Under the pieces are notes generated by a model. The model was not told where the DNA came from, did not search any database, and saw only the letters and a program-made list of their open reading frames with translations. A program made the position numbers and the translations under genes. Below, in pieces: positions 8,114-63,935 of a stretch of DNA of 64,000 bases. Position 1 is the stretch's first letter; each line of letters opens with the position of its first letter. The stretch comes from Syntrophales bacterium (GTDB lineage Bacteria; Desulfobacterota; Syntrophia; Syntrophales; CG2-30-49-12), in NCBI GenBank assembly GCA_030018935.1, contig JASEGZ010000004.1, positions 918 to 64,917 on the forward strand, given 5' to 3'.

Positions 8114-8235
8114 ATTTTTATACTGCAAAATTTCGCTACCAACTTTTCCCTACCCCGCCGCTCTCAATCTCTCGTTATAAGATGCAATCAAATAACGAGA
8201 GATTAAGCAGTCTGATTACTAATAACATCAATTTT

Positions 8236-8883: not shown

Positions 8884-8916
8884 AGGCCATTCATCGTCAC
8901 CTCACTCTTGCTTCGG

Positions 8917-9200
8917 CTATACATATTTCCAGCACCGTACCGGGTGAGCGGGCGTTTTTTCCTTCAGCTCCGGCTCTTCCTGCCGACAGATCGTCATCAC
9001 ACAAGAACACCGATCAAAAAAGCGACATCCCCGGAGAAGGTTATGTAGATCGGGAACAACGCCAGGTATTACCTTCAGATAGCTGTCCCGCCCCACAATT
9101 CCGTTCATCTTCGGAATAACTTCCAGCAGGCCGACGGTATAGGGATGCAAGGGTGTGGAAAAAATATCTCCCACAGAGCCGTATTCAACAGCCTTACGGC
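8917..9200 (-). pseudogene. truncated duplicate of the oppD 3-prime end
   Basis: Encodes ...[46 protein letters not shown]...PVRCWKYV, nearly identical to the C-terminus of the intact gene at 11515-12489. DNA similarity runs from 8882-9200 to 11479-11799. There is no Walker A/B part. Confidence 0.8.
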
Positions 9201-9248
9201 TGAAATCAGCGGTGGCTGTAAGCCATCCGCTGGAGTGATTTGTTAGGC
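9191..9248 (-). repeat. attC-like imperfect palindrome
   Basis: Minus strand reads GCCTAAC-AAATCA..CAGCGG-loop-CCGCTGATTT..-GTAAGGC. The outer 7-mers resemble integron R''/R' boxes (RYYYAAC / GTTRRRY, one mismatch). ~58 nt, located right after the cassette gene stop. Confidence 0.3.
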
Positions 9249-9268
9249 GACTTTCCATTCTACAGAGT

Positions 9269-9715
9269 TCATTCTACGCCGAGGGCTTCGAGATCCGCTT
9301 GATCCTTTTTTCTACCTAATGCTTGTTTGTTACGGATGAACTCCTTCCTTCCAACGAAGTACACTACAATATCACCATAATTTCCTTGCACTCGACCAGC
9401 AGCCGCTTCCTTCCAGGATACTCCGGTGATGGAGGTCACAATATCTATCCGGACCGGCGCCACGCCAAGTTGTATCACTTTATCAGGAACTGTGAAATCC
9501 TCTGCCGTCAAACCAACAGAACCAAAACCAAATTCCTCAAGTGCTTTAAGAATCCGGTGAGCGTTCTCCGGACCAGGGCGCACAAGAATGTCCATGTCTC
9601 CTGTATACCGTGGAGCTCCGTGGTATGCGAGGGCGTGTGCGCCCACTATAAGATAATCAACTTTGTGAGCGTTGAATAATGCGAGCAGATCTCTGAAGTC
9701 TTGCTGAACTTCCAT
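9269..9715 (-). CDS. minimal nucleotidyltransferase-fold protein (cassette-borne, TA-like)
   Basis: FRDLLALFNAHKVDYLIVGAHALAYHG.PRYTGDMDILV, a G...G..R.T.D.D nucleotidyltransferase signature. 148 aa, overlaps the upstream small gene. Confidence 0.6.
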   Translation of the reverse strand: MEVQQDFRDLLALFNAHKVDYLIVGAHALAYHGAPRYTGDMDILVRPGPENAHRILKALEEFGFGSVGLTAEDFTVPDKVIQLGVAPVRIDIVTSITGVSWKEAAAGRVQGNYGDIVVYFVGRKEFIRNKQALGRKKDQADLEALGVE

Positions 9716-46889: not shown

Positions 46890-46931
46890 ATGACCTATGA
46901 CTTACGACTTATGACCTATGACTTACGACTT
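46890..46931. repeat. tandem 21-nt (3 x 7) repeat ATGACCTATGACTTACGACTT x2
   Basis: Two exact 21-nt units built from 7-mers ATGACCT/ATGACTT/ACGACTT. Lies between the HMGCS-DUF35 stop codon, which it touches, and the thiolase start. Confidence 0.8.
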
Positions 46932-48324: not shown

Positions 48325-48365
48325 AAAAAACGCCTCCTTTTTTTCATAAAACTTTTGACAATATC

Positions 48366-49946
48366 TTAAAGAGGGATATTCCCATGCTTCTTCCAGGGTC
48401 TTACTTCTTCTTTATTTGCAAAGCAGGCTAAGGCGTTTGATAATTGCGGTCTTGTATCGCGGGGGTCTATTATATCTTGGATTAATTGCCGCGCTCCAGC
48501 ATGATATAAGTTATTATATTTCTGGACGAATTCTTCTATCCTCTTTTTTCGAACCTCTTCGCGATTTTCCGCAGTCTTTAATTCCTTTTCATAAATGGTA
48601 TTAACGGCGAGTTCTGGGTCTAAGAATCCTACTTTTGCCGTCGGCCAGGCAACTGTTAAATCTACTCCCATCGGTCCTGTGCCCATGACGAATTCAGCAT
48701 AACCGGAACACTCCCCTACATAAATAGTAATCTTAGGGACAGTAGCCTCACAGATAGCGTAGGGAACCTTTGCCGCATGTCGTTCCAATCCTAACTCCTC
48801 TTGCTCTTTGCTGGGAAGAAAACCTACGCTATCTACTAAGAAAATTAGAGGAATATTAAACGCGTCACAGAACCTGATAAATCTCGCCATTTTATCCGAG
48901 GAATCCCTATCTATAGCGCCCTGCATTACTTGAGGATTATTGGCCACTATTCCAACTGTCTGGCCACTTAGGCGGGCGAGACCTATAATTGCGTTTTTTG
49001 CATAAACTGGCTTTATCTCGAAGAAATGACGGTTATCTATGAGACGATAGATGATTTCATACATATCTCTCTTTTCAGCAAGGTTCAACAGCTCCTCATC
49101 TCTCCGGGTGGAAGGGTCGCCAGTATCAATGATAGGTGGTCGTTCTCTATAGTTCGATGGCAGAAAACTCAAAAGCTCTCTGGTCTTTCCTATTCCCTCT
49201 TCATCAGAATCAACGACCAAATCAGAAGTGCCACTTATTTCAGCATGAACCTCAGAGCTTCCAATATCTGCATAAGTCACCACCTCTCCTGTAACATCTT
49301 TAATTGCCGGAGGAGAACAAAGAGCCATGAAAACTTCAGGACTTCTACGCATGATCAAGAAATCTTTTAGTATGGGCGAATAGGAAGAACCTGCGAATTG
49401 CGGCCCCAGCAGTAAAGCGATCTGTGGTATTACCCCTGATGCCCAGGGAGGGGAATACATAAAGCTTCCTGTTTCACCTATTCCGTAGCCACTAATGGGT
49501 GCCCTAAACGTAGGTTCACCCATCATGTCTTGTATCCTTATCCCGGCACTATCCACTATTCCCACATAAGGGATCATCATTTTGGTAGCTGTGTCAATTG
49601 CTTTGGTTACTTTGCTATGCTGCACCGCAGATTGCGTCCCGCTCATTTCGGTAAAATCATGGGCGTATGCATAGACCCAACGCCCATGTACTTTGCCAAA
49701 ACCGATAACCACTGCATCGCCAGGAAGGGATCGGGCATCAATATCATCAAAGCCTGTCCTCATAGGCTGAGCCCATAACTCTGATTCATGGAAGGTTCCT
49801 GAATCAAAGAGCAACTCGATCCTTTCCCTGGCTGTTAGCTTCCCCTTTCCACGCTGTCTCTCTATTTCCTTTGGCCCGCCTCCTAACTTATTCTTCTCCC
49901 TCTCCTGTTCTATTTCCCTGATTTTTTCTCTTATTTTTCCCTCCAT
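48366..49946 (-). CDS. acyl-CoA carboxyltransferase (PccB / MmdA / GcdA family)
   Basis: GKLTARERIELLFD.GTF.E, GDAVVIGFGKVHGR, FTEMSGT, and the second-half carboxyltransferase domain. 526 aa. Confidence 0.88.
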   Translation of the reverse strand: MEGKIREKIREIEQEREKNKLGGGPKEIERQRGKGKLTARERIELLFDSGTFHESELWAQPMRTGFDDIDARSLPGDAVVIGFGKVHGRWVYAYAHDFTEMSGTQSAVQHSKVTKAIDTATKMMIPYVGIVDSAGIRIQDMMGEPTFRAPISGYGIGETGSFMYSPPWASGVIPQIALLLGPQFAGSSYSPILKDFLIMRRSPEVFMALCSPPAIKDVTGEVVTYADIGSSEVHAEISGTSDLVVDSDEEGIGKTRELLSFLPSNYRERPPIIDTGDPSTRRDEELLNLAEKRDMYEIIYRLIDNRHFFEIKPVYAKNAIIGLARLSGQTVGIVANNPQVMQGAIDRDSSDKMARFIRFCDAFNIPLIFLVDSVGFLPSKEQEELGLERHAAKVPYAICEATVPKITIYVGECSGYAEFVMGTGPMGVDLTVAWPTAKVGFLDPELAVNTIYEKELKTAENREEVRKKRIEEFVQKYNNLYHAGARQLIQDIIDPRDTRPQLSNALACFANKEEVRPWKKHGNIPL

Positions 49947-49975
49947 TTCACACCTCGCTAAGGGGATAACTGATA

Positions 49976-51511
49976 TTACAAATTGATATTCTCGTGCTTC
50001 CTCGGCGGTCTTCCTTCTTTTTTATCGGCTGTGCTTTTTAATGCTCTGATAATAGCCTGTCTTGTTAAGCGCGGATCAATGATGTCCTCGTTTGTCTCAG
50101 AAGAAAACCTCTGTACCTGCACTTCCATTACCTCAGTTCCTCTGCGCTTTATTTCCGCCGCTTCTTCAGGGGTTTTCGCTCGCTTTATCCTGCCCAAATA
50201 AACGACAGAGGCGAGCGCGGCAGCTCCCATTACTCCACGCTCTACAGTAGGCCACGCTAAATAGCGGTCTGCCTTAGTGAAATTCACCGGCATAACTAAC
50301 TGTGCCCCGCCATAAAGTTTCCTTACAATTACATTGATCTTAGGGACGGTAGCTTCTGAGGTGGCATGTATCACCATAGTGCCATGACGAAGGATACCTT
50401 TACGTTCCTCAACAGCACTGGGTAAAAACGCAGGACAATCAGAAAAATATACTATTGGTATATTAAAGGCATCACAAAATCGAGTAAAGCGAGCATGCTT
50501 ATCTGCGCTATCGGTATCTTCACATCCTCCTTTCCAACCTGAGTTATTCGCTATTATTCCTGCAGTTTGCCCATTAAACCGGGCAAAACCCACGCTTAAA
50601 TTTCGTGCGTAATCTCTGTTAACTTCAAAATAATAACCGTTATCTACCGCCCTTTTAATTACTTCACGGGTATCAAACCACTTACTCAGGTCAGCCGGCA
50701 CTACTTCGAGGATATCTTCCATCACCCTATCAGGGTCATCTCCAGTCTCAACAATGGGAGGCATTTCCTCGTTATTTGATGGCAAAAAGCTTATTAATTC
50801 TCTACATTTTTCCAAACAATCACCTTCATCTCTTGCCAGCACACTACAGCATCCGCTTCTCCCTGAGTGCATTTTAGCATCGCCTATCTCCCGGCCAGTA
50901 ACCAGCGGGGGTGGGGGAGCCACGTGCATATAGCTTGTCCCTCTGACCATGAAAACAAAATCTGTTAGGACAGCCGATAATGCGGCAGGCCCGACGCAAG
51001 GACCCATTACAAGCGAAACCTGAGGAATTACCCCCGAGGAAAGGGTCTGGAAACGCATCATCAAACCTGGAGTAAAATGACTGTGAGCATGAACTAAGTT
51101 TTGTATTCTCATCCCTTCCGAGTCATACATCCCTATTATAGGACATCTTTCCTTAAGGGCCTTCTCCATTACGGTAACTATTTTCCTGATATGGTTTTCA
51201 GCCATAGTGCCGCCTAAAACGGTAGCATCCTGCGCCCAAACGAAGACAGGTCGCCCGTTTATTTCCCCTTGCCCCACAATCACAGCGTCTCCAGGAGCAT
51301 CTACCTCATCAATATCAAAACCTGTTTTGTAGGCCGAACTCCAAAGATCTATTTCCTGAAAACTGCCCTGGTCTAGAAGCTTCTCTATTCTTTCCCTCGC
51401 AGTGAGTTTACCCTGCTGGTGGACCTTCTCTATCTCGGAAGGTCCACCTCCCCATTTCAACCTTTTGATCGTTGCTTCTCTTTCTTCCCATTTATCCCTT
51501 AAAGTGACCAT
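49976..51511 (-). CDS. acyl-CoA carboxyltransferase (PccB / MmdA / GcdA family), paralog
   Basis: GKLTARERIEKLLDQGSFQE, GDAVIVGQGEINGRPVFVWAQD, LGGTM. 511 aa. It is clearly diverged from the downstream paralog. Confidence 0.88.
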   Translation of the reverse strand: MVTLRDKWEEREATIKRLKWGGGPSEIEKVHQQGKLTARERIEKLLDQGSFQEIDLWSSAYKTGFDIDEVDAPGDAVIVGQGEINGRPVFVWAQDATVLGGTMAENHIRKIVTVMEKALKERCPIIGMYDSEGMRIQNLVHAHSHFTPGLMMRFQTLSSGVIPQVSLVMGPCVGPAALSAVLTDFVFMVRGTSYMHVAPPPPLVTGREIGDAKMHSGRSGCCSVLARDEGDCLEKCRELISFLPSNNEEMPPIVETGDDPDRVMEDILEVVPADLSKWFDTREVIKRAVDNGYYFEVNRDYARNLSVGFARFNGQTAGIIANNSGWKGGCEDTDSADKHARFTRFCDAFNIPIVYFSDCPAFLPSAVEERKGILRHGTMVIHATSEATVPKINVIVRKLYGGAQLVMPVNFTKADRYLAWPTVERGVMGAAALASVVYLGRIKRAKTPEEAAEIKRRGTEVMEVQVQRFSSETNEDIIDPRLTRQAIIRALKSTADKKEGRPPRKHENINL

Positions 51512-51526
51512 TTATTTTCTCCTTCT

Positions 51527-53980
51527 TCATGCGGCAAGCTCCTGCTCAGTTCTGGCGATAATCTGATCTTGAAGCCCCTTCTCTAAATCAACGAAGTAAG
51601 CGCTAAAGCCAGCTACCCGGATTACTAAGTCCCCATACTCTTCCGGATTTTGCTGGGCATCAATGAAAGCTTCCCTATCCAGAACATTGAATTGGATATG
51701 GTGAATCCCTAAATCAACGAAGGTGCGAAGGTAGGAAGCAAAGACATCTTTATATTCCTCAGTTAGATACTGAGGGGTAAATTTTTGATTAAGTAGATGG
51801 GTCATAGTCCCCTTATGGTCTATCTTAGCCACAGAGTTGAGGACCGCCGTGGGACCTTTCTTGTCTGTGCCAATCTCAGGGGAAATCGTCCCATCATTGA
51901 CGTTTTGACGGTCTTTCCTCCCATCAGGAGTGGCCCCAAGAAGCCCACTATAGGCAAAATAGGTAGCGCCCCCTGTGCCATCCTCAAGCCAGTCTCCGCC
52001 CCAAATGTTCTTAAAGCTCCTGATAACCTGCGTAGTTCTTGAGTAGATATCCCTTGCCAGCGAATCAACATAATCATCATCGTTGCCGAATTTGGGGGCA
52101 TTGATGAACATCTGGCGTAGCTCTTCTTTCCCTTCCCAGTTGTTTTTCAAGGCGTCTATAAGTTCATCCATAGTAACCTTTTTCTCATCGAAGATGAGTT
52201 TCTTTATGGCGGCTAAGGAATTAACCAGGGTTATTTGCCCCACAGGTTGAATAATCGTATTAGGAAAGAATTTATAATGCCGGCAATCCTTAGCATTTTC
52301 AATACAACCGTCGAGCAAGGCGGAAAGGAAAGGCTGATATAAATATTTCCCATCCAGAACATCCACCAGGTTACAAATAGCAATATGTCTCTCCATAAAA
52401 AATCTTAACTGGGTGAGATAGGCTTGTATCACATCCTCTATGGAGGTCCAGGTGCGTGGATCACCGCTATCAACACCCCACTTCTTACCGCTGAATTTAT
52501 TCCACCCCTGATATAGGGCATACTCTAAGTGTTTGGGTAAAACTTCATAGCCCCCCAGGGCGCGACAACCTAAAGGCTTGCCCGGAATGGCCCATCTCAT
52601 GCACCCTTCAGTGGAGTAATCGAGGGCGTCCTCATGGGAAATACCAAAGCTTTCAAGGTAGGGAATCATCATTTCGTCGTTGAAGAAAGAGTAAATGCCG
52701 GCATTTATCCGTTGTGAGTCAGCGATCTTATATAGGAATTGCGTTGGAGTATCCCTGTGAAGCCTTATCGCCAGTGCCGGCTGAGCTAACTTTGTCGTAT
52801 TAGCCGCATCCATGGCTAAATAGGTCATCTCATTGGTGACATCTTTTCCCTCACGGGTCTGCCCTCCCAGGGTCAAAACCCGCGCCGTCATTAAGGTCAT
52901 GCCACCACCCGCCTGCACCGGAGGGACCAATTGTCCTTCCTCATTCATCTTGAGGAAGAGGTGCTCTACCAGTTCCTGGGCCTCGAGCCTGGTAAACCTC
53001 TTCTCCTCTTCTACATCCTTCCTGTAGAAGGGATACATAATCTGGTCAAATCTATCCCCTCCTCCAGGCGTCTGCAGGTCAAGTATGCGAGTAACAAGGA
53101 ATATAAACCAGTAGCACTGGAGAACTTCATGGAGAGTTCGGGCTGGATTTGCTGGCACCTGCTCCCACACCCGAGCCATCTCCTCCAACTCCTTCTTCCT
53201 CTTGCCATCCGTCTCCCTCTGCGCCTCCTCTGTTAACTTCTCTGCCCACCTTTGCCCATATCTAATGCCTGCCTCTAAAGATATTATAACTGCTTGAAGA
53301 AACTGCTTTTTATCCAGATAATCGGCGGCAAGGTATTCATCTGGATTTGAATCAAGTTTTTTTAGCCTCTCCTTTGCCTCCTCTAATATCCCCTTCAGTC
53401 CCCATTTAAATACCTTTTCGTAATTAGCTACTCCGGTGCGCCCACCGTGCAGCCAGGACATAGCTCCATGGTTATTGTAAAACCAGTAAGGTAGCACTTC
53501 GGGAGGGAGCAATTGTCTTTCCATCCCATGCACCGCTTTATTTGAGAAGTACTTATGAATTTCATGAAGTTCCTGCCTCTCCTCGTCGCTGAGCAGGGTT
53601 TTATAGTCCGTATCGAGGGCTTTATCCAGCCACCTCCACCAAAGCTCAGGATAGGTGACCACACTATCGGGCTTACCATTAATATTCCCCACGATCCGTT
53701 CATCAGGGAGGATGTACAGGGTCATATTATCTAAAAGCTTGGCTAAGCCCCTCGCTCTTTGAAGCACTGGTGGTTCCCCTAATGCCTCAGCTTCCTTATA
53801 TCCCATGGCGACTAAGCGTGCCCTCTCGATATCAAGTGTTATACCTTCACGATAAGGGATGCGCGCTACATCCTTTTCCCCAGCCAATATCCTCCCTTTA
53901 CCCCTCATAGCCTTACTCCAATAGGCTCTTCGCTTTCTCATCTCCTCTGTAATTCTCTTTTCAGTTTCTACCTGGGCCAT
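51527..53980 (-). CDS. glycyl radical enzyme (PFL2/dehydratase-like family, specificity unknown)
   Basis: 817 aa. N-terminal ERARL...LYILPDERIVGN, Cys loop STEGCMRW, KFGNDDDYVD, GATPDGR, and the C-terminal glycine-radical motif VIRVAGFSAYFVDL...QDQIIARTE. Confidence 0.92.
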   Translation of the reverse strand: MAQVETEKRITEEMRKRRAYWSKAMRGKGRILAGEKDVARIPYREGITLDIERARLVAMGYKEAEALGEPPVLQRARGLAKLLDNMTLYILPDERIVGNINGKPDSVVTYPELWWRWLDKALDTDYKTLLSDEERQELHEIHKYFSNKAVHGMERQLLPPEVLPYWFYNNHGAMSWLHGGRTGVANYEKVFKWGLKGILEEAKERLKKLDSNPDEYLAADYLDKKQFLQAVIISLEAGIRYGQRWAEKLTEEAQRETDGKRKKELEEMARVWEQVPANPARTLHEVLQCYWFIFLVTRILDLQTPGGGDRFDQIMYPFYRKDVEEEKRFTRLEAQELVEHLFLKMNEEGQLVPPVQAGGGMTLMTARVLTLGGQTREGKDVTNEMTYLAMDAANTTKLAQPALAIRLHRDTPTQFLYKIADSQRINAGIYSFFNDEMMIPYLESFGISHEDALDYSTEGCMRWAIPGKPLGCRALGGYEVLPKHLEYALYQGWNKFSGKKWGVDSGDPRTWTSIEDVIQAYLTQLRFFMERHIAICNLVDVLDGKYLYQPFLSALLDGCIENAKDCRHYKFFPNTIIQPVGQITLVNSLAAIKKLIFDEKKVTMDELIDALKNNWEGKEELRQMFINAPKFGNDDDYVDSLARDIYSRTTQVIRSFKNIWGGDWLEDGTGGATYFAYSGLLGATPDGRKDRQNVNDGTISPEIGTDKKGPTAVLNSVAKIDHKGTMTHLLNQKFTPQYLTEEYKDVFASYLRTFVDLGIHHIQFNVLDREAFIDAQQNPEEYGDLVIRVAGFSAYFVDLEKGLQDQIIARTEQELAA

Positions 53981-54114
53981 TTTGCTAACCTCCTTTTTTG
54001 AAACTTAAGAACCTTCAGTCACTTAGAACAAAGTCCCATGCCGCTTTCCCATTGAATTAGAATAGCATACCGATTTTCCGCAATAATACAACTCTTGTTT
54101 GCCATGCAAGAGAT

Positions 54115-55272
54115 TCAAAGAGAATCATTTATCGTGCCATTTAACACGGCCCTTGCAGTATGCACTCTCGCGATCTGATTTGTCCCTTCCATATAATGAG
54201 AAGATTTTATGTCTCTCATTATTCTCTCTAATGGATGATCCATCATATATCCATGCCCGCCTAAGACATCCATCGCATAATTAGCCACCTCAAGTGCCTT
54301 CTCAGTGACAAAACATTTAGTAAGCGCGGCAAATCCTGGAGTTCTCTCCTTTTTCTTTGGATCGTCCATCATAGAAGCAACTCGGTATAACAGAGAGCGA
54401 GAAGCCTCTATACGTATAGCCATTTCCGCAAGCAGCATCTGAACTGCCTGGAATTCAGATATCTTCCTGCCAAAGGCTACTCTCTCCTTAGCGTATCTGG
54501 TGGCGTAATCCAAAGCGGCTTCAGCTGCACCGAATGCCGTAGAAGCGACATAAAGGCGAGTGGGATTTATTGCCTCAAATCCCAATTTCATTCCCTCCCC
54601 TTCACCACCTAGCAGATTCTCCTTTGGCACCCGGACATCTGTTAAAGAAATGTCTGCTGTTGGTCCACAATGCTTCCCCATTTCTTCATTTATTCTCTCT
54701 ATATTTACTCCTTCTGTTTTCCTATCTACCACAAATGCTCCTATTCCATCTAACCCTTTTTCTGGACTCAATTTGGCAAAAAGAACATAGAAATCTGCCA
54801 CTCCCCCTTGTGTGACAAAACATTTTCCTCCGTTTATAACATATTCATCTCCTTCTAAAACAGCCTTTGTTCTTATTGCTCCCACATCACTCCCCGCATC
54901 AGGCTCAGTTATGGAGAAGGCGGGGAATTCACCATCAGCTAACCTCTTGAGATATTTCTTCTTCGCTACTTCATTCTTTGATCCCTTAAAGCAATTCACT
55001 ACCGATGACGGCGCCCCTAACATATAACCCACCACTATACTTGCTTTAGAAAGCTCCTCTATGCCTAAGCAGTTCATAAGAACACTGTCATATCCTCCAT
55101 ACTCTTCAGGAAGGGGCAGCAAATGGAATCCGTGATCTATCAGCATTTTGGCGACATCGAAAGGGAAATCCCCAATTTTATCTATTTCCCCCATCTTCGG
55201 CTCTATTTCCTTGGATACTATCTTTCTAATTGCTTGCTGCACCATCCTTTGTTCTTCGGTAAGTTCATACAT
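54115..55272 (-). CDS. acyl-CoA dehydrogenase
   Basis: Start ATG 55272 (GGGAGGTG upstream). ELTEEQ..., FSITEPDAGSD, and a C-terminal catalytic-Glu region YMEGTNQI. Confidence 0.9.
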   Translation of the reverse strand: MYELTEEQRMVQQAIRKIVSKEIEPKMGEIDKIGDFPFDVAKMLIDHGFHLLPLPEEYGGYDSVLMNCLGIEELSKASIVVGYMLGAPSSVVNCFKGSKNEVAKKKYLKRLADGEFPAFSITEPDAGSDVGAIRTKAVLEGDEYVINGGKCFVTQGGVADFYVLFAKLSPEKGLDGIGAFVVDRKTEGVNIERINEEMGKHCGPTADISLTDVRVPKENLLGGEGEGMKLGFEAINPTRLYVASTAFGAAEAALDYATRYAKERVAFGRKISEFQAVQMLLAEMAIRIEASRSLLYRVASMMDDPKKKERTPGFAALTKCFVTEKALEVANYAMDVLGGHGYMMDHPLERIMRDIKSSHYMEGTNQIARVHTARAVLNGTINDSL

Positions 55273-55322
55273 ACTTCCTCTACACCTCCCCTTCTTACTT
55301 AACTTTCTCAAATTTAATTTTT

Positions 55323-56483
55323 CTATCCCTCACCTCTCGGTAGATTCAACCCTATTCTTGCGATGGTATTTCGCTGAATTTCTGAAGCTCCTGCCGAAAT
55401 ATTGCGGCGGGCTGCATGGCGATAGAGACGCTCTATTCTTCCCATAAGGGGGGCCGAGGGGGAACCTTTCTGTAATTGACCGCAGGGTCCCATAATTTCC
55501 ATCGCCGTATTACTGAACCTCCTCATAAATTCGGTCATATATACTTTGACCATGGGCGCCTCCCAATTTGGGGCCATCTTATTCTCTATCAGCCATATCA
55601 CACGGTAGGCAATAAGATACAACGCCTGTAACTCGGTGGCCAGTTGGGCCACATGCTGTTGAACGAGAGGATCTTTGCCAAGCCCCTGATCTTTAATGTA
55701 GCCGACAAATTCTTCAAAGATACGTCGCAGCTCTCCCATGGGTAAAATCCTCTCGTAGGAAAGGGCAGTCAAGATATAATAAAACCCCCGGTTTTCTTCA
55801 CCGACCAGATTCTCTACCGGAACCTTAACATCATCATAAAAGACCTCGTTGCTCCTCTCACCATCCATAACCCATAAGGGGCGCACCGTGATACCCGGAG
55901 TCTTCATATCAACAATCAAAAGGGATATCCCTTTATGTTTGGGGACAGTGGGGTCTGTCCTGACGGCGAGCCATACATATTGAGTAAAATGGCATCCCGT
56001 GTTAAAAGTCTTCTGTCCATTTACGACGTAAAAATCCCCTTTTTTCTCCGCCCTGATCTGCAGATTGGCCAGGTCTGAGCCGGCTTCCGGCTCTGTGTAC
56101 CCCAGGGCAAAGTCAATCTCCCCCCTGGCTATCCTGGGAAGGTACTCTCTCTTCTGTGCCTCACTTCCGGAATGAAGCAGCATAGGTCCTACAATCGTAA
56201 CACCGCAAAGACCTAATGGTAAAGCTCTGTGGTACGACACTTCATCGGTGAGAATAAACTGCTGCCAGCGGGTGGCACCCATTCCTCCATATTCTTCTGG
56301 AAAAGCAGGAGCCAACCACTTTTTCTTGCCCAGCCTGCGCATGAGTTCCCATGTATGTGGCCCTATCCCTATCTCTGTCCCCCTTTCCACCTCTTCAATC
56401 ATCTCCTCGGTTACCTCTGCATCCAGGAAATGACAAACCTCTTCTCTAAATCTCTCTTCTTCCGGTGAAAAACGAAAATCCAT
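55323..56483 (-). CDS. acyl-CoA dehydrogenase
   Basis: Start ATG 56483. GYTEPEAGSDLA, and a C-terminal SAGASEIQRN region. Confidence 0.88.
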   Translation of the reverse strand: MDFRFSPEEERFREEVCHFLDAEVTEEMIEEVERGTEIGIGPHTWELMRRLGKKKWLAPAFPEEYGGMGATRWQQFILTDEVSYHRALPLGLCGVTIVGPMLLHSGSEAQKREYLPRIARGEIDFALGYTEPEAGSDLANLQIRAEKKGDFYVVNGQKTFNTGCHFTQYVWLAVRTDPTVPKHKGISLLIVDMKTPGITVRPLWVMDGERSNEVFYDDVKVPVENLVGEENRGFYYILTALSYERILPMGELRRIFEEFVGYIKDQGLGKDPLVQQHVAQLATELQALYLIAYRVIWLIENKMAPNWEAPMVKVYMTEFMRRFSNTAMEIMGPCGQLQKGSPSAPLMGRIERLYRHAARRNISAGASEIQRNTIARIGLNLPRGEG

Positions 56484-56515
56484 CCCAATCACCTCTTTCT
56501 TATTTTCAAGTTAAG

Positions 56516-57652
56516 TTAGTTAAGTCCCATTTCCCTGGCCACTATCCCCCGTTGAAAGGTGCCGTTACCTAAGGATAGAGCTGCCGCCTTGGCACGTCGG
56601 AAATAAAGTTGCATGTCGTGCTCTTTAATTAAACCCGTACCACCATGTATCTGCTGGCCTAAGGTGGTAATGTTGATATAGGCATCACTGATAAACGCCT
56701 TCGCCATTGCTATTTCCTTTTCACAGGGGATTCCCTCACTTAGCATCCATGCCGCATAGTAGGCAAGGTAACGAGAACAATCAAGATCAATGGCCATATT
56801 GGCACAGTGGTGTTGGATAGCCTGGAAGCTTCCTATGGGACGATTAAATTGCACCCGCTGTTTGGCATAATCTACTGTCATTTCCAGAACCTTTTGCGCC
56901 CCGCCGACCATCTCCGCACATTTAGCCAGAGCGGCTCGCTGCAATGTCCTTTCTAAATCTGCCGTACTCTGCTCCCCGTCGCCAAGGAGGTTTTCTGCAG
57001 ATACCTTCACATTATCAAATTTTATTTCAAACAGCTTATCCCCTGAAATGGTCATAAGAGGAGTAATGGATATACCAGGGCTTTCTTTATCTACGAGGAA
57101 AAGTCCCATAGCAGGACTCCCATTTTTTTCTCCCTTACCTCTTGTAACACAAACCATCCAGTCGGCAATATGGGCATCAGGTACACAGAGTTTGATACCA
57201 TTTAGAGAGAAAGTATCTCCCTCCCTTCTGGAAGTCATCTCGATCTTTGCTACATCGGAGCCCGATTGAGGTTCAATTATAGCCATGGTTCCCAGGGATT
57301 CACCGTTATTTATAGCAGGAAGCAGCCTTTTCTTCTGCTCTTCGTTACCGATATTAAGGATACTCTGTGCCCCCAGGAGGATAGTGGAAAAGAACCAGCT
57401 CGGTGCGCACGCTCTTCCCATTTCTTCCAGAAGCACCGCAAGATCAAGGAAATTACCTTCACTGCCACCATATTCAGATGGGAATATTAAACCCAGCCAG
57501 CCCATCTCTGCCATCTTCCGCCAGAGGGGAGGGGAAAATTCCCTCTTCCCTTCCTCTATCTCCCGTACCAGGCTTGTTGGACACTCTTTTGCCAGAAAAT
57601 TCCGGGTAGTTCTCTTTATTATCTCCTGTTCTTCATTCAAGGATAGATTCAT
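56516..57652 (-). CDS. acyl-CoA dehydrogenase
   Basis: LNEEQE..., AIIEPQSGSD, QIHGGTG. 378 aa. Confidence 0.88.
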   Translation of the reverse strand: MNLSLNEEQEIIKRTTRNFLAKECPTSLVREIEEGKREFSPPLWRKMAEMGWLGLIFPSEYGGSEGNFLDLAVLLEEMGRACAPSWFFSTILLGAQSILNIGNEEQKKRLLPAINNGESLGTMAIIEPQSGSDVAKIEMTSRREGDTFSLNGIKLCVPDAHIADWMVCVTRGKGEKNGSPAMGLFLVDKESPGISITPLMTISGDKLFEIKFDNVKVSAENLLGDGEQSTADLERTLQRAALAKCAEMVGGAQKVLEMTVDYAKQRVQFNRPIGSFQAIQHHCANMAIDLDCSRYLAYYAAWMLSEGIPCEKEIAMAKAFISDAYINITTLGQQIHGGTGLIKEHDMQLYFRRAKAAALSLGNGTFQRGIVAREMGLN

Positions 57653-57796: not shown

Positions 57797-58114
57797 CTAC
57801 ATGATCATTTTCGGCATTTTGAGTTGCATTTTGCTTATCAGTTCTCTCTGTTGCGCGTTGAGCTTAACCGGCTTCCGTGCTGTTTTGCCCGAAAGCTCCT
57901 CTATGCCTAAGCAGTTCATAAGAACACTGTCATATCCTCCATACTCTTCAGGAAGGGGCAGCAAATGGAATCCGTGATCTATCAGCATTTTGGCGACATC
58001 GAAAGGGAAATCCCCGATTTTATCTGTTTCCCCTATCTTCGGCTCTACTTCCTTGGATACTATCTTTCTAATTGCTTGCTGCACCATTCTTTGTTCTTCG
58101 GTAAGTTCATACAT
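57797..58114 (-). pseudogene. truncated duplicate of the 5-prime end of the acyl-CoA dehydrogenase at 54115-55272
   Basis: The first ~75 codons plus the 5-prime UTR (57891-58160) are near-identical to 55049-55321. The rest (GKTARKPVKLNAQQRELISK...) is unrelated. Confidence 0.8.
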
Positions 58115-58200
58115 ACTCCCTCTACACCTCCCTTTTTTTAACTTTCTCAAATTTAATTTTAAGTGATATATTTAGCTTTACCCATCCTTTGAGATCTGCT

Positions 58201-59370
58201 TCAAATAGACCTCCCGCCGATACTCTTCCGGGCAGATAAATAGTCCTCAATTATTACCCTTCCCAGATTATCCGAAGAGGTAAAGAAGACACGACCCGCA
58301 TTAATTTTAGCCAGTTGAGAGGCAAAATCTTTCAGCCCTGGTTTTTCCCCCAACATTATTATATTCAGGGTAATGTCTTCCCTTCTGTATTGGAGGGCTT
58401 CTTTTTTTACACCGGGTGCCGCTTTTTCAAATCCCACATACTTGCCATTTTCCGTATTAGGTTCGGTATCTGTAATAAGGTATACTTGTTTGTTTCCCCT
58501 TTCATTGCACAGAGCCCTCCTGCCGGCCAGTAGAGCGGCCTTTATATCTGTAGTGCCACCTAAAAGATTTATATTTAAGATATCCCAGTAGGATATTTCC
58601 TTGATCTGCGAGGAGTAAACGATAACCTTTAAAGTGTCGCCCGGTCTTTTTGTCCTCGCCAGAGCCAGACAGGTGCTGATGGCCGCATCTCTTTTCTCCT
58701 CACCCATGCTTCCGCTTTCATCAATCAATAAGGCCATGCTGATTTTACTTTCGTTGTTTTTCTCAAAAACCTCAAAGTCTTCCCGTTCTAAGGAAATAGG
58801 AGACTTTCTTCCTCTATGAGCATCGGAGATATTCTTTTCCGTTAATGCCTTTCTCTTTAGAGAATTAAGAAGTGTTTTTTGAATATCAACAGATCCGTAG
58901 GCATCGCCATACTTATATTTCCTCGTAGATAAGGCCAATTCCAGACCATAGCCCACCTCTTTTACTTTATAGGTGCCGGCTTCCCTTTTTTTCATCAGAT
59001 TTTCCAAATTGACCCTTGCTATATCTGCCAGTTTTTGACCGCCTTTTTGAGTTATTATCACCTGACCTTTTTCCAGTTTTAGATCGCCCTGCTCAACATA
59101 CCTTTCCAGGCAACCCTCTACATCTGCCGGTAGAATCCCATCGGCAAGATTTTCATAGCCACCCTCCACTTTAATATGATCCCCCGGTTCTTCACCCCTC
59201 ACCCTTTTCTTGACATGTTCGAGCGTTTTATCCCTGATGCTCCCCTTGCCGCCGTCCCTGAGATACTTGAGTAAATCTCTTACGGTGCGATTTTTAGAAT
59301 AGGCAAGCTCCTGCAAAATCTTATCCTGTTCCTCTTTCTGTTCAAACATGCATCTCTGGCAGAGTTCCAT
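58201..59370 (-). CDS. von Willebrand factor A (vWA) domain protein, ChlD/BchD-like partner
   Basis: C-terminal vWA domain with MIDAS LLIDESGSM, ...GGTTD..., ...ITDTEP. Its start abuts the stop of the upstream AAA+ gene (TAAATG junction). Confidence 0.8.
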   Translation of the reverse strand: MELCQRCMFEQKEEQDKILQELAYSKNRTVRDLLKYLRDGGKGSIRDKTLEHVKKRVRGEEPGDHIKVEGGYENLADGILPADVEGCLERYVEQGDLKLEKGQVIITQKGGQKLADIARVNLENLMKKREAGTYKVKEVGYGLELALSTRKYKYGDAYGSVDIQKTLLNSLKRKALTEKNISDAHRGRKSPISLEREDFEVFEKNNESKISMALLIDESGSMGEEKRDAAISTCLALARTKRPGDTLKVIVYSSQIKEISYWDILNINLLGGTTDIKAALLAGRRALCNERGNKQVYLITDTEPNTENGKYVGFEKAAPGVKKEALQYRREDITLNIIMLGEKPGLKDFASQLAKINAGRVFFTSSDNLGRVIIEDYLSARKSIGGRSI

Positions 59371-60894
59371 TTATCCTCTCCCCTTTGCCCAGCCGATCAT
59401 CGCCGGGGTAAAAATCCTGCCTTTGATTTCCTCTTCCGCTATTAGATTGCCGTGTAAGGCCGTATTTAAAACAGTCTCAAAAGCTGAATAGTTATATTGT
59501 TCCAGGGTTTCCTGGTCAGCGGCAGCCGGTTCCGTAAAGACTTCCTTCTCCCGTTCATTGAGCAACTCACCCTTTACCTTTTCCATTCCCACCATTTCCA
59601 TTTTCTTTATAACCCGGTTTAATTCCCCATATTTCTGAAGTTTAAGGGTGAGATTTTTAATTTCTTCAGAACATAAGATAACCTGCCTTATATCCTTCGC
59701 CAGTCTTTCCCTGTCACATTCTGCGAGGATAGAAAATCTCAGATTTTCAAAGGCGTTCCACAGTAAATCTTCGCTTACCTCATCGGTACGCTTAAAACTC
59801 TCCTCAGGATTTTCGAAGTCTATCAAATCAGGTTTCAATTCTATGCGACCGCGCAAGGCCAGCTTTAATCCAGCAACGGCATCCTGCAGATACCCCACTT
59901 TTCTATTTTCCAGTTCAGCACTGGCATAGGTATGGTCGAGCGCCCTGTAACTCCCCCTGAGACTTGTCCTTCTGTCTAACAACCCACATTTGCGGCTGTG
60001 ACTTATACTTTCATTCAAAAGATGCATTATCCACCAGGGTAGTACTACCTTCCTTTCATTCTCTTTCATGTTTATCTTCTGGGGGAGGCAATCCTCTTCT
60101 CTTCCCATATCCTGTAAGTAGTTCTCGGTTTTAAATTTTTCTCGCAGCATAATCTCCATTTCTATCTCTTTAGTGGGCAGGGGCATATAGATCAGTTCTA
60201 ACCTGTCTAAGAGGGGACGTGGAACCTCATTAACATGGGAAAAACCCTGCGGATTGCCAGTAGCCACGAGGACAATATCAAGAGGATGCTCCCAGTTGTA
60301 CTCTTCGAGGATGGCTTTCTTCTCCTCCAGGATAGGGTGTAACAGAACCTGAACCTTGGTTCGAATAGCCGGCAATTCATCAATAAATAAGATGCCCCGA
60401 TTAGCCCTGAAGATACCTGTGGCGGCAAAGGCCATGGCATCCGTTGGGCTTCTGCCCTGGACTATGGCCTGAATATCTACCAGGCCCAGTAATTTTGCTT
60501 CATCAGTATAGTCATTGCCCTGAATGCGGGAAAATCTACGTTCACCCGCTACCAGCTCATATTCTCTTACCGGATCTTCAATGCATCTTGGACATAATAA
60601 ATGAGCAGGCCACTTCGGATCATCATTATAAGGGCAATTTTTTATCCTCGGGATGGGAGATAAAAGCCTGGTCAAAGATTTGGCTAACCTTGTTTTCCCT
60701 GTCCCCTCTTCAGAAACCAGATAAATGTTGTAGCCGGAAAGTAACGCCCGTAGAACATCTCTTTTTGTTTCCTCCCGGCCTTGAATGTCCGGCAGTATCT
60801 CTTCTCCTTTCTTAATTTTCTGTAAAATGGAAGCCCTGAGTTGATTTACTACGGAAACTGGCTGGTAGCTGTCCAGATTAAATCTACTTTTCAC
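59371..60894 (-). CDS. ChlI/BchI-like AAA+ ATPase
   Basis: Walker A EEGTGKTRLA, Cys-rich insert NCPYNDDPKWPAHLLCPRC, Walker B GILFIDELP, and sensor region ATGNP...PLLDRL. This layout matches Mg-chelatase subunit I-type ATPases. GTG start after AAGGGGGA. Confidence 0.8.
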   Translation of the reverse strand: MKSRFNLDSYQPVSVVNQLRASILQKIKKGEEILPDIQGREETKRDVLRALLSGYNIYLVSEEGTGKTRLAKSLTRLLSPIPRIKNCPYNDDPKWPAHLLCPRCIEDPVREYELVAGERRFSRIQGNDYTDEAKLLGLVDIQAIVQGRSPTDAMAFAATGIFRANRGILFIDELPAIRTKVQVLLHPILEEKKAILEEYNWEHPLDIVLVATGNPQGFSHVNEVPRPLLDRLELIYMPLPTKEIEMEIMLREKFKTENYLQDMGREEDCLPQKINMKENERKVVLPWWIMHLLNESISHSRKCGLLDRRTSLRGSYRALDHTYASAELENRKVGYLQDAVAGLKLALRGRIELKPDLIDFENPEESFKRTDEVSEDLLWNAFENLRFSILAECDRERLAKDIRQVILCSEEIKNLTLKLQKYGELNRVIKKMEMVGMEKVKGELLNEREKEVFTEPAAADQETLEQYNYSAFETVLNTALHGNLIAEEEIKGRIFTPAMIGWAKGRG

Positions 60895-61151: not shown

Positions 61152-61355
61152 TAAGAAGAATTTTGCAGAATTAAAAATTTCATGATAAGAGTAGTAAACT
61201 ACCTTCACTCGAACAATTCGAAAATCTTTTAAATCATCGTCTCAAATAACGAAAGGGGGGATTTTAATTAAAGGGGATGCGGTAGTAATAAGTAATTCCA
61301 AAAGGGAAGGTTGTTTCATTTAACATTTAAGGAAATAAGAAAGGAGGAAGGTACG

Positions 61356-62924
61356 ATGGGAGAGATAATTCCAAAACTGGGGACGATTTCATTTGAGGAC
61401 CAGGCAAAAAAGGCCAGGCCTTACGATTGGGGATTTGGTTGTACACCCAGGGTTGCTAAACTAAGGGACGATTGCTATTCAAAGGCGGTAATAATAAAAG
61501 ATTGGGCTGATGTTGTTAGTGGATTGGGTGTGGTCAGCTTCCGAAAGGATGTAAGACTCGATGTTGATAGGGCAAGGATTGTTACGAAGGCTTTTAAAGA
61601 AACTGAAGGGAAACCGGTTGTATTACGAAAGGCAGAAGTTATGTCCAGGTTATGTGAAGAGATGCCCATCTTTATTAAACCGGGAGAGCTTATTGTGGGG
61701 GATCCTAATAGTGCACCCGATGAGGTGAGGTGGTATCCTGAAATTTCCGTATCCTATATACCGGAGTCATTGGAAACCGGCTTTAAGCATATGGTAACGC
61801 CCGAAGAGAAAAAAGAGATACTCGAGGAGATTTATGATTACTGGAAAGACAAATCACAGGAATGTTTAGTAGAGTCGGTTCTGCCAAAAGAGGTATCGCC
61901 GTTTGTACATCGCTCTCCAACTAACCCATGCTTTTTTGCAGATCTCTGGAATGCCGGACGGACATTGATGGACTATGATTACGAAAAAATTTTCCAGGGA
62001 GGTGTCAAAGGAAGGGTTGAAAAGGCAGAAGCAAAACTTAAGGAATTGGAAAGTAAATCCTTTGAAATGCATCCTGCTGATTATATCCATAAGAAGAATA
62101 CCTGGGGAGGTATGATTAAATGTGGAAAGGCGCTGATCAGATTTGCCCAAAGATATGCTGAACTTGCCAGGGAACAGGCGCAAAAAGAGCAGGACCCAGT
62201 TCGCAAAAAGGAATTAGAAGAGATTGCAGCCGTTTGTGAGTGGGTCCCGGCAAATCCCCCCCGTACTTTCCAGGAAGCGCTCCAGTTTTTCTGGTTTAAT
62301 GAGGTAGTTGGCAGGTTTCTTGCGATACCCGGCAATGGTTCGGGGTGTAGACTTGACCAGGTATGGTGGCCTTACTATGAGAAAGATATGAAAGAAGGAA
62401 AACTCACCAGGGCTAAGGCATTAGAGATGATAGAATGCTGGATGCTGAAAGTTCAGGAGGTAGGCAACTATATCGAACATCCTCAAACCTTCTCCCTGAC
62501 GGCTGGCACTGATGTACTCTATACGGCCAATATTGGCGGTTCGAGGCCTGATGGAAGGGATGCATCAAATGATCTGACCTGCCTGGTCCTGGAAGCAATG
62601 GCCGACGTTCGGATCAATCAACCTCCTGTCATGTTCCGTTATCACCGTAATGTAAATCCTGATGTAATAGAGAGGGTTATTGAACTGATCCGGGCTGGGA
62701 CCGGTCATCCGGCAATTTTTAATGAGGAACTACTGGAGAGGTGGGCATTGATGCGTGGTTATTCTCTTGAAGATGCCAAGAGGACCCAGGCGGCGGGGTG
62801 TGTGGCCATGACTTGTACAGGCAAACCTCTTTCTTCAGGTTTTTTCCCGGTAATAAGTTTTTTAGGCGCGCCCAAGATGATGGAATATGCCCTTTACCAG
62901 GGGAAAGATGCCTTTAGCCAGTAA
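61356..62924 (+). CDS. glycyl radical enzyme, N-terminal fragment (carries the catalytic Cys loop)
   Basis: Start ATG 61356 (AAAGGAGGAAGG upstream). DRARIV...IFIKPGELIVGD, and Cys loop AAGCVAM (Cys codon 62799-62801). Ends at TAA 62922 at a position that aligns with the middle of the 817-aa paralog. Confidence 0.85.
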   Translation: MGEIIPKLGTISFEDQAKKARPYDWGFGCTPRVAKLRDDCYSKAVIIKDWADVVSGLGVVSFRKDVRLDVDRARIVTKAFKETEGKPVVLRKAEVMSRLCEEMPIFIKPGELIVGDPNSAPDEVRWYPEISVSYIPESLETGFKHMVTPEEKKEILEEIYDYWKDKSQECLVESVLPKEVSPFVHRSPTNPCFFADLWNAGRTLMDYDYEKIFQGGVKGRVEKAEAKLKELESKSFEMHPADYIHKKNTWGGMIKCGKALIRFAQRYAELAREQAQKEQDPVRKKELEEIAAVCEWVPANPPRTFQEALQFFWFNEVVGRFLAIPGNGSGCRLDQVWWPYYEKDMKEGKLTRAKALEMIECWMLKVQEVGNYIEHPQTFSLTAGTDVLYTANIGGSRPDGRDASNDLTCLVLEAMADVRINQPPVMFRYHRNVNPDVIERVIELIRAGTGHPAIFNEELLERWALMRGYSLEDAKRTQAAGCVAMTCTGKPLSSGFFPVISFLGAPKMMEYALYQGKDAFSQ

Positions 62925-62928
62925 AAGC

Positions 62929-62963
62929 GGGATTGGGGCCAGAGCCCCAATCCCTTTATTTTT
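62929..62963 (+). terminator. intrinsic-terminator-like hairpin inside the split glycyl radical enzyme
   Basis: GGGATTGGGGC-CAGA-GCCCCAATCCC followed by TTTATTTTT, then AAAGGAGG (62965-62972) and ATG 62982. Confidence 0.6.
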
Positions 62964-62981
62964 GAAAGGAGGATAAATTCC

Positions 62982-63935
62982 ATGGAAAGACCGAAAACCA
63001 AAGATCCGAGGGAGATGAAATCAGGCGATGAATTACTCGATGCTATATGTGAGCAATTAGACTTCTACACAAAAATAGCTGTTCTTTCTCATAATATAGG
63101 TCATCAGGTAATCATGGATCATAACGCAGATCCTCTTAATTCTTTGATGCTCGATGAGACTTTGGAGCGTGGTGATGATCTGTATAAGTATAATCTGGAG
63201 TTTGACAGCGAGCCCCAGTTAATCTCATTAGGTTTTGTAAATGTCGCTGATTCACTGGCAGCCATCCAAAAACTGGTTTTTGAGGAGAAGAAATATACGA
63301 TGGATGAGCTTCTTTGCGCACTGAAATCAAATTGGGATGGTTATGAAGAGATGCGTCAGGATTTCCTTAATGCTCCCAAGTACGGCAACGACGATGACTA
63401 TGTTGATGAGTGGGCGGTAAAGGTAAAAAGGAGAATGTACGAAACTGTTCACAACATTAAAGATGCATGGGATAACCCCTGTATCATAGATGGAAGTTCG
63501 GTAATTGCTTATCAGGCAATGGCTTTAGGCATTGGAGCCACACCCGACGGCAGGATGATGTCCGATATTATGGCTGATGGTAGCTTTTCGCCTGCGGCGG
63601 GCGCTGACAAGAAAGGTCCTACAGCGGTACTTAACTCCGTGGGCAAGGTGCCTTTTCTCCATACCGGCCTCTTTAACCAGCGCTTTATGCCGGCATTTCT
63701 TGAGGGAGAGAACAAAAAACTCTTCGCTGAATATTTGAAAGAATGGTATGAAAAGATGACTATCCCCCATATCCAGTTTAATGTAGTTAACTCTGAAACT
63801 TTAAGAGATGCCCAGCAAAATCCGGAAAAGTACCCCGATCTCCAGGTAAGAATCGCAGGCTATAGCGCTTACTTTATTGATATACCAAAGGAGACGCAAG
63901 ACAGCATCATTTGCAGAACGGAGCATAGCTTTTAA
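62982..63935 (+). CDS. glycyl radical enzyme, C-terminal fragment (carries the glycine radical domain)
   Basis: KYGNDDDYVD, GATPDGR, KKGPTAVLNS, and VRIAGYSAYFIDI...QDSIICRTE. Aligns with residues ~500-817 of the paralog at 51527-53980. Confidence 0.88.
   Translation: MERPKTKDPREMKSGDELLDAICEQLDFYTKIAVLSHNIGHQVIMDHNADPLNSLMLDETLERGDDLYKYNLEFDSEPQLISLGFVNVADSLAAIQKLVFEEKKYTMDELLCALKSNWDGYEEMRQDFLNAPKYGNDDDYVDEWAVKVKRRMYETVHNIKDAWDNPCIIDGSSVIAYQAMALGIGATPDGRMMSDIMADGSFSPAAGADKKGPTAVLNSVGKVPFLHTGLFNQRFMPAFLEGENKKLFAEYLKEWYEKMTIPHIQFNVVNSETLRDAQQNPEKYPDLQVRIAGYSAYFIDIPKETQDSIICRTEHSF

Follow-up and report, generated by a model that had tools for sequence, protein, structure and literature searches.

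Introduction

Glycyl radical enzymes (GREs) are described in a 2026 review as single chains of 80-100 kDa, and spare-part proteins are known only for the formate lyases (PMC13450708). The chain runs from a first half-barrel through the Cys loop and a second half-barrel to the glycyl radical domain, and the radical glycine lies within the fingerprint RVxG[FWY]x6-8[FL]x4Qx2[IV]x2R (PMC13450708). The closest precedent for a catalytic chain carried on two genes, as described below, is the class Ia ribonucleotide reductase (RNR) of phage Aeh1 (NrdA-a/NrdA-b). NrdA is a 10-stranded alpha/beta barrel with a Cys finger loop, an architecture as in GREs (Crona et al, 2010, PMC3045599; Friedrich et al, 2007), and in Aeh1 it is divided by mobE into two polypeptides with a shared active site and full activity (PMC3045599). 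In the literature that we found, including the GRE review (PMC13450708), no split GRE was described; a 2025 paper on a limonene GRE was considered and set aside, as it concerns a benzylsuccinate synthase (BSS)-type enzyme unrelated to the split.

In this study, a GRE divided between two genes was analysed in a 64,000-nucleotide stretch of a Syntrophales bacterium (GenBank assembly GCA_030018935.1, contig JASEGZ010000004.1), which is referred to as the window. The two genes lie next to each other near the end of the window; the catalytic cysteine is encoded in the first and the radical-bearing glycine in the second. We found that this arrangement probably represents a natural and evolutionarily stable fission of a GRE, tolerated and near-neutral, in a permissive loop of the protein.

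Results

Two consecutive ORFs together encode one GRE

The features of the gene pair are given below with their positions in the window. Loci from other genomes and metagenomes are numbered with the prefix L and protein clusters with the prefix P.

61340-61347, plus strand: Shine-Dalgarno (SD) sequence AAAGGAGG of the N-piece gene, read from the sequence, 8 nt before the ATG at 61356
61356-62924, plus strand: N piece of the split GRE, 522 amino acids (aa), with a PFL-like match and 522-aa orthologs
62799-62801, plus strand: TGT codon of the predicted catalytic cysteine, Cys482, in the motif GCVAM; the column is invariant in 82/82 family members
62922-62924, plus strand: TAA stop of the N piece, aligned with CAA (Gln) in the unsplit sister gene L013
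62925-62981, plus strand: intercistronic spacer of 57 nt, aligned as DNA with the 28-codon linker of the unsplit L013
62929-62963, plus strand: intrinsic-terminator-like hairpin and T-tract, recognised by folding; lineage-specific
62965-62984, plus strand: SD AAAGGAGG (62965-62972), 9-nt gap and ATG of the C piece, a module kept in split loci
62982-63935, plus strand: C piece of the split GRE, 317 aa, with PFL-like and Gly_radical matches and 317-aa homologs
63858-63860, plus strand: GGC codon of the predicted radical-bearing glycine within RIAGYS, Gly293 of the C piece and Gly815 in fused numbering; the column is invariant in 82 sequences

When compared with Pfam, the N piece matched positions 18-463 of 647 of the PFL-like domain (E = 2e-110), and the C piece matched positions 471-628 of the same domain together with the whole of Gly_radical (5-106 of 106, PF01228). 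Because these ranges nearly adjoin, the two pieces make up one complete GRE with almost nothing missing. The predicted secondary structure placed the N-terminal helices, the first half-barrel, the Cys finger loop with Cys482 and one more strand and helix in the N piece, and left four predicted barrel strands and the glycyl radical domain to the C piece. The N-piece ORF ends in ...EYALYQGKDAFSQ-TAA and the C-piece ORF starts with MERPKTKDPREMKSGDELLDAICEQ (in its longer form, MERPKTKDPREMKS). The glycyl radical fingerprint RIAGYSAYFIDIPKETQDSIICR of the C piece fits the GRE motif (PMC13450708) with conservative V>I and L>I substitutions. The pair has the features of the PFL-like superfamily, namely a PF02901 barrel, here distributed over both pieces, and a C-terminal full-length PF01228, and it departs from the single 80-100 kDa catalytic chain of GREs in having two ORFs of 522 and 317 aa, each with its own SD and ATG.

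A first-pass annotation of this DNA, made from the sequence alone, had reported the ORF ends, the 57-nt spacer, the hairpin, the SD and ATG, and the placement of the catalytic Cys and Gly on separate ORFs, all of which were reproduced here. It had also stated that essentially nothing is missing at the split, which agrees with the near-complete Pfam coverage and with the intact paralog in the window (51527-53980, minus strand, 817 aa) that could be aligned across the junction. The paralog is 37% identical to the N piece and 45% identical to the C piece.

Diverged lineages share the split, and purifying selection acts on both halves

When homologs of the C piece were searched for, five clusters (formed at 90% identity) were obtained, all exactly 317 aa long and 82-97% identical (P0001-P0005). 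The C piece of the window itself had no exact entry in the contig index. Loci were collected from the contigs behind these clusters and by scanning species-representative genomes and Joint Genome Institute (JGI) metagenomes. The split loci related to that of the window, with their identities to its N and C pieces, are as follows.

L010: metagenome-assembled genome (MAG) Syntrophaceae bacterium CG2_30_49_12, contig MNZP01000025; 522+317 aa; 94% (N), 96% (C)
L064, L065: Ga0100397, Ga0210016; 522+317 aa; among the window's 94-96% relatives
L001-L003, L066: 522+317 aa; 78% (N), 86% (C)
L007-L009, L011, L012: Deltaproteobacteria CSMAG MAGs, ERZ23495241 and ERZ23495476; 522+317 aa; 82% (N), 83% (C)
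L078: 522-aa N piece, with the C piece running off the contig end (145 aa seen); 80% (N), 79% (C)

Thus, the same split that the first-pass annotation had proposed to look for in orthologous loci was present as a 522+317 aa arrangement in at least five diverged lineages at about 78-96% amino acid identity, drawn from several independent datasets. The split architecture was seen in MNZP01000025, Ga0100397, Ga0210016, Ga0209345, ERZ23495241, ERZ23495476, ERR3365594 and the CSMAG MAGs. The clusters formed at 90% identity or more around the two proteins of the window had 16 members each, and the listed members of at least 300 aa (C) or 500 aa (N) were all 317 or 522 aa long, with the exception of one of 306 aa. 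One member, P0243, was present on 26 contigs, and the GenBank name of the cluster proteins was "hypothetical protein".

When pairwise substitution rates were estimated by the NG86 method within the split clade, the ratio of nonsynonymous to synonymous rates (dN/dS) was 0.07-0.18 (N piece) and 0.02-0.16 (C piece). The dS values were about 1-4 between the split lineages and 0.16-0.20 for the closest pair. The fused sequence of the window retained 222 of the 239 columns (93%) that are at least 90% conserved in 81 family members; the retained fraction was 0.83-1.0 in unsplit members and 0.917 in the unsplit sister. The low dN/dS, the retention of conserved columns and the invariant Cys482 and Gly815 together rule out a recent inactivation, which had been one of the two options of the first-pass annotation. 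Its other option, a functional two-piece GRE, is strongly favoured by the conserved split, the purifying selection on both halves, the retained Cys and Gly and the activase gene found downstream in orthologous loci. These results together indicated that the split, which is shared by a group of uncultured anaerobic bacteria, is real, old and maintained by selection.

A hypervariable loop of the predicted fold contains the break

The fused chain was modelled with AlphaFold from an alignment of 82 sequences, with a mean predicted local distance difference test (pLDDT) of 91.8 and a predicted template modelling score (pTM) of 0.92. The template modelling (TM) score of the fused model against the structure 1r8w was 0.87 when normalised by the query and 0.93 when normalised by the target, and it was about 0.86-0.87 against 4pkf, 5a0u, 6vxc and 9o8u, the range over the full-length GRE structures being 0.84-0.87. 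In this model the two pieces together are structurally complete as a full GRE fold. The Cys finger was predicted as a hairpin (477-480/484-487) with Cys482 at its tip, followed by a strand (501-504), a helix (505-514), a coil of 22 residues (515-536) and a long helix (537-569). The break falls at 522|523 within this coil, where pLDDT drops to 69-77. If the published topology order (PMC13450708) is applied, the N piece would extend through the first half-barrel and the Cys loop to the opening strand and helix of the second half. Among 81 homologs the break coil was the stretch of highest entropy (2.7-3.5 bits) within residues 476-545, rich in insertions and deletions and occurring in several length classes. 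The model and the alignment together suggested that the break site is a permissive, hypervariable loop.

Spacer DNA matches linker codons in the unsplit sister gene

The closest unsplit gene, L013 (P0121, from a Sterolibacterium sp. MAG), is 74% identical in the N part and 76% in the C part. Between the motifs YQG and RPxTKDPR it encodes a 28-residue linker, QDATRHQEGKSLEPKSIYLSKGGVDLKE, and the same span of the window holds exactly 28 codons, namely KDAFSQ, the stop, 18 spacer codons and then M-E. The L013 sequence TCGAAAGGCGGAGTAGACCTCAAGGAAAGGCCG could be aligned with TTGAAAGGAGGAATAGATCTCATGGAAAGACCG of the split orthologs (that of L007 is given; the window differs at a few spacer positions), and the differences between L013 and the split genes include CAA/TAA, AAG/ATG and GGCGG/GGAGG. 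Since linker and spacer DNA align, the SD of the C piece corresponds to Lys-Gly-Gly codons and its start codon to an AAG Lys codon of L013. Compared with the sister gene, nothing has thus been inserted here, and the "terminator-plus-RBS insert" of the first-pass annotation, with RBS for ribosome-binding site, is better described as DNA that either descends from linker codons or gave rise to them. The fission, or a later reversion in one lineage, would have come about through point changes in the linker DNA, CAA/TAA giving the stop and AAG/ATG the start, and an internal SD would have been sharpened (GGCGG/GGAGG). An intein or intron was also considered and rejected, as the spacer is only 57 nt long, has no intein-sized ORF and the termini of the pieces carry no extra sequence.

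The 28-residue linker of L013 is unique among 81 full-length homologs; linkers are about 16 residues in the closest other unsplit relatives (L014, L015, L021, L024) and shorter still in most others. From these sequences, lengthening of the linker may have preceded the fission, or else L013 arose by a secondary re-fusion that turned the spacer into a linker. The unsplit L013 may thus represent a re-fusion in which a former intergenic spacer, including its SD, is now coding (L013 5929-6000).

A second GRE clade was split at the same loop

Neighbour-joining trees of 783 and 822 columns were made with 100 bootstraps each. The split clade that includes the window (clade A) was monophyletic (100%) and sister to the unsplit L013 (100%), and both were nested among unsplit genes (100%). 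A second set of split genes (clade B) was also monophyletic (100%) and joined another unsplit clade, a large one (97%); no bootstrap tree united clades A and B (0%). Because clade B joins another unsplit clade and never clade A, fission at this loop has probably occurred at least twice. The clade B loci are as follows.

L005, L006: 531+321 aa
L060, L061: 533+323 aa
L062, L063: 411+131+323 aa, in three pieces (L062 at 36-2870)
L004: ...+125+319 aa, in three pieces and truncated by the contig end (2-1947)

L004 was left out of the trees; it was placed in clade B on account of a C piece with 70-75% identity to the others and of the second break, which it shares with L062. This second break (...ANIGGSKD-stop / MGTKDACNDLTC) corresponds to about residues 396-400 of the window protein. 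In the three-piece GREs an AGGAGG-type SD precedes each piece, GAGG in the case of the L062 middle piece, and each piece has its own start codon; in L062 the activase gene is adjacent on the opposite strand. Among themselves, the C pieces of clade B share 70-76% identity, and with the nearest unsplit proteins they share about 58%. When the N piece was compared by phmmer with 1.84 billion cluster representatives, only P0193 of clade A was of the N-piece type among the best 150, which suggests that fission is rare across GREs.

Other interrupted GREs were also noticed, namely L016 with an ORF end at 651 aa, L095 with a frameshift and L108, in which an in-frame stop precedes the C part by about 29 codons. 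Such interruptions may be errors, pseudogenes or further fissions.

A proposed two-chain GRE and the alternatives to it

A gene for a GRE activase is located directly 3' of the split GRE in the orthologous loci L001, L007, L010 and L064 (TIGR02494, E = 1e-104). In the proposed fission, the pieces would be two cistrons of one operon, translated separately into a 522-aa and then a 317-aa polypeptide, and the N and C chains would assemble non-covalently into an ordinary GRE fold, with the N piece bearing the dimerisation helices. The neighbouring radical S-adenosylmethionine (SAM) activase would install the radical on Gly293 of the C piece, from where it would be handed to Cys482 on the N piece across the subunit interface. 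The split would have been kept because both parts are needed. Co-transcription, assembly and activity of the two pieces are what we infer.

Several points weigh against this explanation. The window ends at 64000, 65 nt past the C piece, and the activase was seen only in orthologous loci. Two-chain assembly was deduced from conservation and the fused model only. If efficient, the strong terminator-like hairpin could starve the C piece in this lineage. The change at the L013 node may be a fission or a re-fusion, and the trees are neighbour-joining only. Furthermore, all clade B loci come from one metagenome assembled three ways (ERZ27237542, SRR5248754 and Ga0209345 are assemblies of apparently the same data), which gives independent assembly and not independent sampling.

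The alternative that survives best, though we regard it as unlikely, is an adaptive modular design in which the C piece is an exchangeable radical subunit, activated alone or swapped after oxygen cleavage, and the terminator tunes the N:C ratio. The location of Gly and Cys on different chains and the two fissions at the same loop would fit such a design, and the stand-alone 93-aa Gly_radical mini-protein near the split locus L007 could be taken in the same sense. The hairpin is the other point in its favour. It comprises a perfect 11-bp stem with 8 GC pairs and a 4-nt loop (62929-62954), followed by TTTATTTTT (62955-62963); its folding energy was about -27 kcal/mol (z = -3.5), none of 200 shuffled sequences folded as well, and no terminator-like site in the last 20 kb of the window, the stretch that was scanned, was stronger. 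As it was built by several substitutions from a non-pairing ancestral sequence, it hints at selection in this lineage. A repetitive extragenic palindromic or miniature inverted-repeat transposable element was considered for the hairpin and rejected, since it occurs once in the window.

The distribution of the hairpin speaks against the modular design. When the 34-nt hairpin core was searched with two stem positions left free, it matched only L010, L064 and L065, the 94-96% relatives of the window, in which two stem mismatches leave a 9-bp stem. It was absent from the split orthologs L001, L007, L011, L012 and L078, and from four of the five split lineages of clade A in all, so that of the check proposed in the first-pass annotation, which had asked for the same split and the same hairpin in orthologs, the hairpin part held in the three close relatives and failed in the more distant loci. 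Being confined to these close relatives, the terminator is a young, lineage-specific feature that stands outside the design of the split; it would have been added later than the fission, and a general role in setting the stoichiometry of the two pieces, as had been suggested, was not borne out. At most, the hairpin may lower the C:N expression ratio or stabilise the upstream transcript in this lineage. The C piece itself also argues against exchange, which would mean pulling half a barrel apart, since its 317 aa supply four predicted strands. The C piece scored 42-60 bits against the NCBIfam models of GrcA, GrcA2 and GrcA3, far below their cutoffs of 145-170, and no excess-copy C gene was present in any locus; in addition, spare parts are known only for formate lyases (PMC13450708). 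Nothing was thus found to support the GrcA-like replaceable radical domain that had been envisaged. A functional division of labour, in which a C subunit is activated free or loosely bound and then docked or exchanged on the N piece as a "radical cartridge", in two or three pieces in clade B and with an attenuator setting the ratios, is given equally little weight.

Recoding was judged very improbable. Here, readthrough of the in-frame TAA or a frameshift would give one chain of about 860 aa with a 19-residue extra linker, spanning KRDWGQSPNPFIFERRINS. The ORFs of the window do share a frame with the TAA as the sole stop in the 57-nt spacer, and the linker of the unsplit sister L013 has exactly the same length. 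The ORFs of L007 share a frame as well, but those of L010, L001 and L078 lie in different frames, the spacers among split orthologs measure 57, 58, 57, 79 and 128 nt, and there are tandem TAG TAA stops in L007 and several stops in the C frame in L001. A stable hairpin 4 nt past the stop is, to our knowledge, no known readthrough signal for TAA-A in bacteria, and it was counted against recoding. What is conserved instead is a strong SD and ATG. The module GAAAGGAGG-N9-CATGGAAAGACC was found in 12 split loci, with GAAAGGAGG-N8-CATGGAAAGACC in the window and the variant GAAGGAGG...ATGGAAAGACC in L078. These findings suggested that the two halves are separate translation units, in which the SD-ATG module is what has been conserved.

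Decay of a recently inactivated GRE beside its intact paralog is still less probable. The presence of the intact 817-aa paralog in the same window would allow for it, and one three-piece relative and the interrupted L095 and L108 show that GRE genes do get broken. The paralog, being only 37% and 45% identical to the two pieces, is not a recent duplicate. Exact ORF lengths have been kept at dS > 1 with dN/dS of 0.02-0.18 in both halves, all invariant residues are retained and the SD and ATG are conserved; the dS values also exclude that the orthologous loci are one clonal sequence. Finally, a sequencing or assembly error giving a false stop, a general possibility in metagenome-derived sequence, is excluded for practical purposes because the 522+317 pair recurs in several lineages and independent assemblies and datasets with diverged spacers (57-128 nt).

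Neighbouring genes and the GRE subfamily

The fission described here falls within a large uncharacterised branch of GREs of the PFL2/glycerol-dehydratase type, with at least 100 unsplit members of 838-866 aa at 50-74% identity and with hosts that include Desulfobacterota, Chloroflexota and Asgard archaea. No NCBIfam equivalog model came near its cutoff for this GRE. The Cys loop GCVAM has no Glu at Cys+2; CutC has CVE at the aligned position. We take a Glu at Cys+2 (GCVE) to be defining for the 1,2-eliminases (glycerol/propanediol dehydratase, CutC, HypD), the E491 mutant entries among the structure matches being part of the basis for this mark. At Cys+15 the alignment has Phe in the window and Arg in MasD (9o8u), where this Arg binds fumarate. 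Having neither the Glu at Cys+2 nor the Arg at Cys+15, the enzyme shows neither the eliminase nor the X-succinate synthase pattern, and no BssB- or BssC-like gene was present beside the split GRE within the window.

Two genes are located upstream of the split GRE on the opposite strand.

59371-60894, minus strand: AAA+ (MoxR/ChlI-like) ATPase, divergent from the GRE pair; Pfam AAA_5, Mg_chelatase
58201-59370, minus strand: VWA-domain partner of the AAA+ ATPase; Pfam VWA_2, VWA

The VWA gene co-occurs with the GRE in L001, L005, L017, L028 and L056. Downstream of the split GRE, L064 (3037-4968) and L010 have two activase-like radical-SAM genes in tandem (328 and 314 aa), and after the activase gene or genes comes a conserved 176-aa protein with no Pfam or NCBIfam match, with a Band_7 gene next in L064 and L010. 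The AAA+/VWA pair and the 176-aa protein were considered as split-specific assembly factors, and this was rejected because they also flank unsplit relatives. As they adjoin both split and unsplit relatives, the AAA+ and VWA proteins are better seen as family-level accessories. A MoxR-type AAA+ gene is also part of the operon in bss and ass clusters.

Further observations were made around these loci. In L007, three genes are encoded about 2 kb downstream of the split GRE, namely the stand-alone mini-protein of 93 aa with a Gly_radical match (4808-5089, minus strand), which is GrcA-like and below the NCBIfam cutoffs, a 54-aa BssC_TutF-like gene (8050-8214, minus strand) and an AAA_5 ATPase (8315-9331, minus strand). 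The intact paralog of the window (51527-53980) belongs to a minus-strand cluster (46930-57652) with two carboxyltransferases and a thiolase-like/OB-fold protein downstream and three acyl-CoA dehydrogenases upstream, a CoA-ester catabolic context reminiscent of hydrocarbon or fatty-acid degradation clusters. A 248-nt direct repeat of 97% identity (57891-58138 and 55049-55296) was also found. The ORF at 57797-58150 (minus strand, 117 aa) is a truncated duplicate of the acyl-CoA dehydrogenase gene at 54115-55311, of which it repeats the 5' end; it lies between the operon of acyl-CoA dehydrogenases, carboxyltransferases and intact GRE and the cluster of VWA, AAA+ and split GRE, and looks like a rearrangement scar.

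Discussion

If the two chains are assembled and active, this natural split GRE would mean that the radical hand-off can cross a subunit interface, and the split would identify a permissive break point in the GRE barrel. Such a GRE could serve as an experimental handle in several ways, namely for segmental isotope labelling in electron paramagnetic resonance (EPR) and nuclear magnetic resonance (NMR) studies of the Gly-to-Cys transfer, for finding what the activase recognises, as the C piece can be offered alone, and for engineering split or conditionally assembled GREs. It also provides a nucleotide-level case of gene fission, or re-fusion, through three point changes in linker DNA, and draws attention to a large and uncharacterised set of GREs that have AAA+/VWA accessories and occur in Syntrophales, Chloroflexota and Asgard archaea. 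The enzyme is not of a new kind; it is a variant of the known GREs, and its division may well be neutral.

The RNR and GRE barrels are homologous. The split GRE resembles the Aeh1 NrdA in that the break is a few tens of residues past the thiyl-radical cysteine. The exact position differs, as the Aeh1 chain is broken between adjacent barrel strands and the split GRE after the first strand and helix past the finger. The origin of the break differs too. The Aeh1 split is caused by the insertion of a homing endonuclease gene (mobE) and needs unique terminal tails as interaction domains, whereas the split GRE has no mobile element, a 57-nt spacer of former linker DNA and termini trimmed to a few residues. 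The two belong to different enzyme classes, and the split GRE is known here from sequence and model.

GrcA/YfiD is a distant parallel only; with it the split GRE shares a separate polypeptide that has the glycyl radical motif and must dock onto a partner with the catalytic cysteine. GrcA, however, is about 127 aa long, consists of the radical domain only and rescues an oxygen-cleaved full-length pyruvate formate-lyase (PFL) that has a Gly domain of its own, whereas the C piece, with 317 aa, also provides barrel strands and the N piece lacks a Gly domain. The hetero-oligomeric GREs, such as BSS (alpha-beta-gamma), (1-methylalkyl)succinate synthase (MASS) and 4-hydroxyphenylacetate decarboxylase (HPAD, alpha-gamma), are similar in having more than one kind of subunit, but in them small Fe-S proteins are added to an intact alpha chain, whereas in the split GRE the catalytic chain itself is divided. 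A further comparison is with the unsplit PFL2-type orthologs (e.g., P0121 of Sterolibacterium sp.), which belong to the same subfamily, with the 50-74% identity extending over the full length, and share the activase, the 176-aa protein, the AAA+ and the VWA genes, and which differ in being single chains of 838-866 aa.

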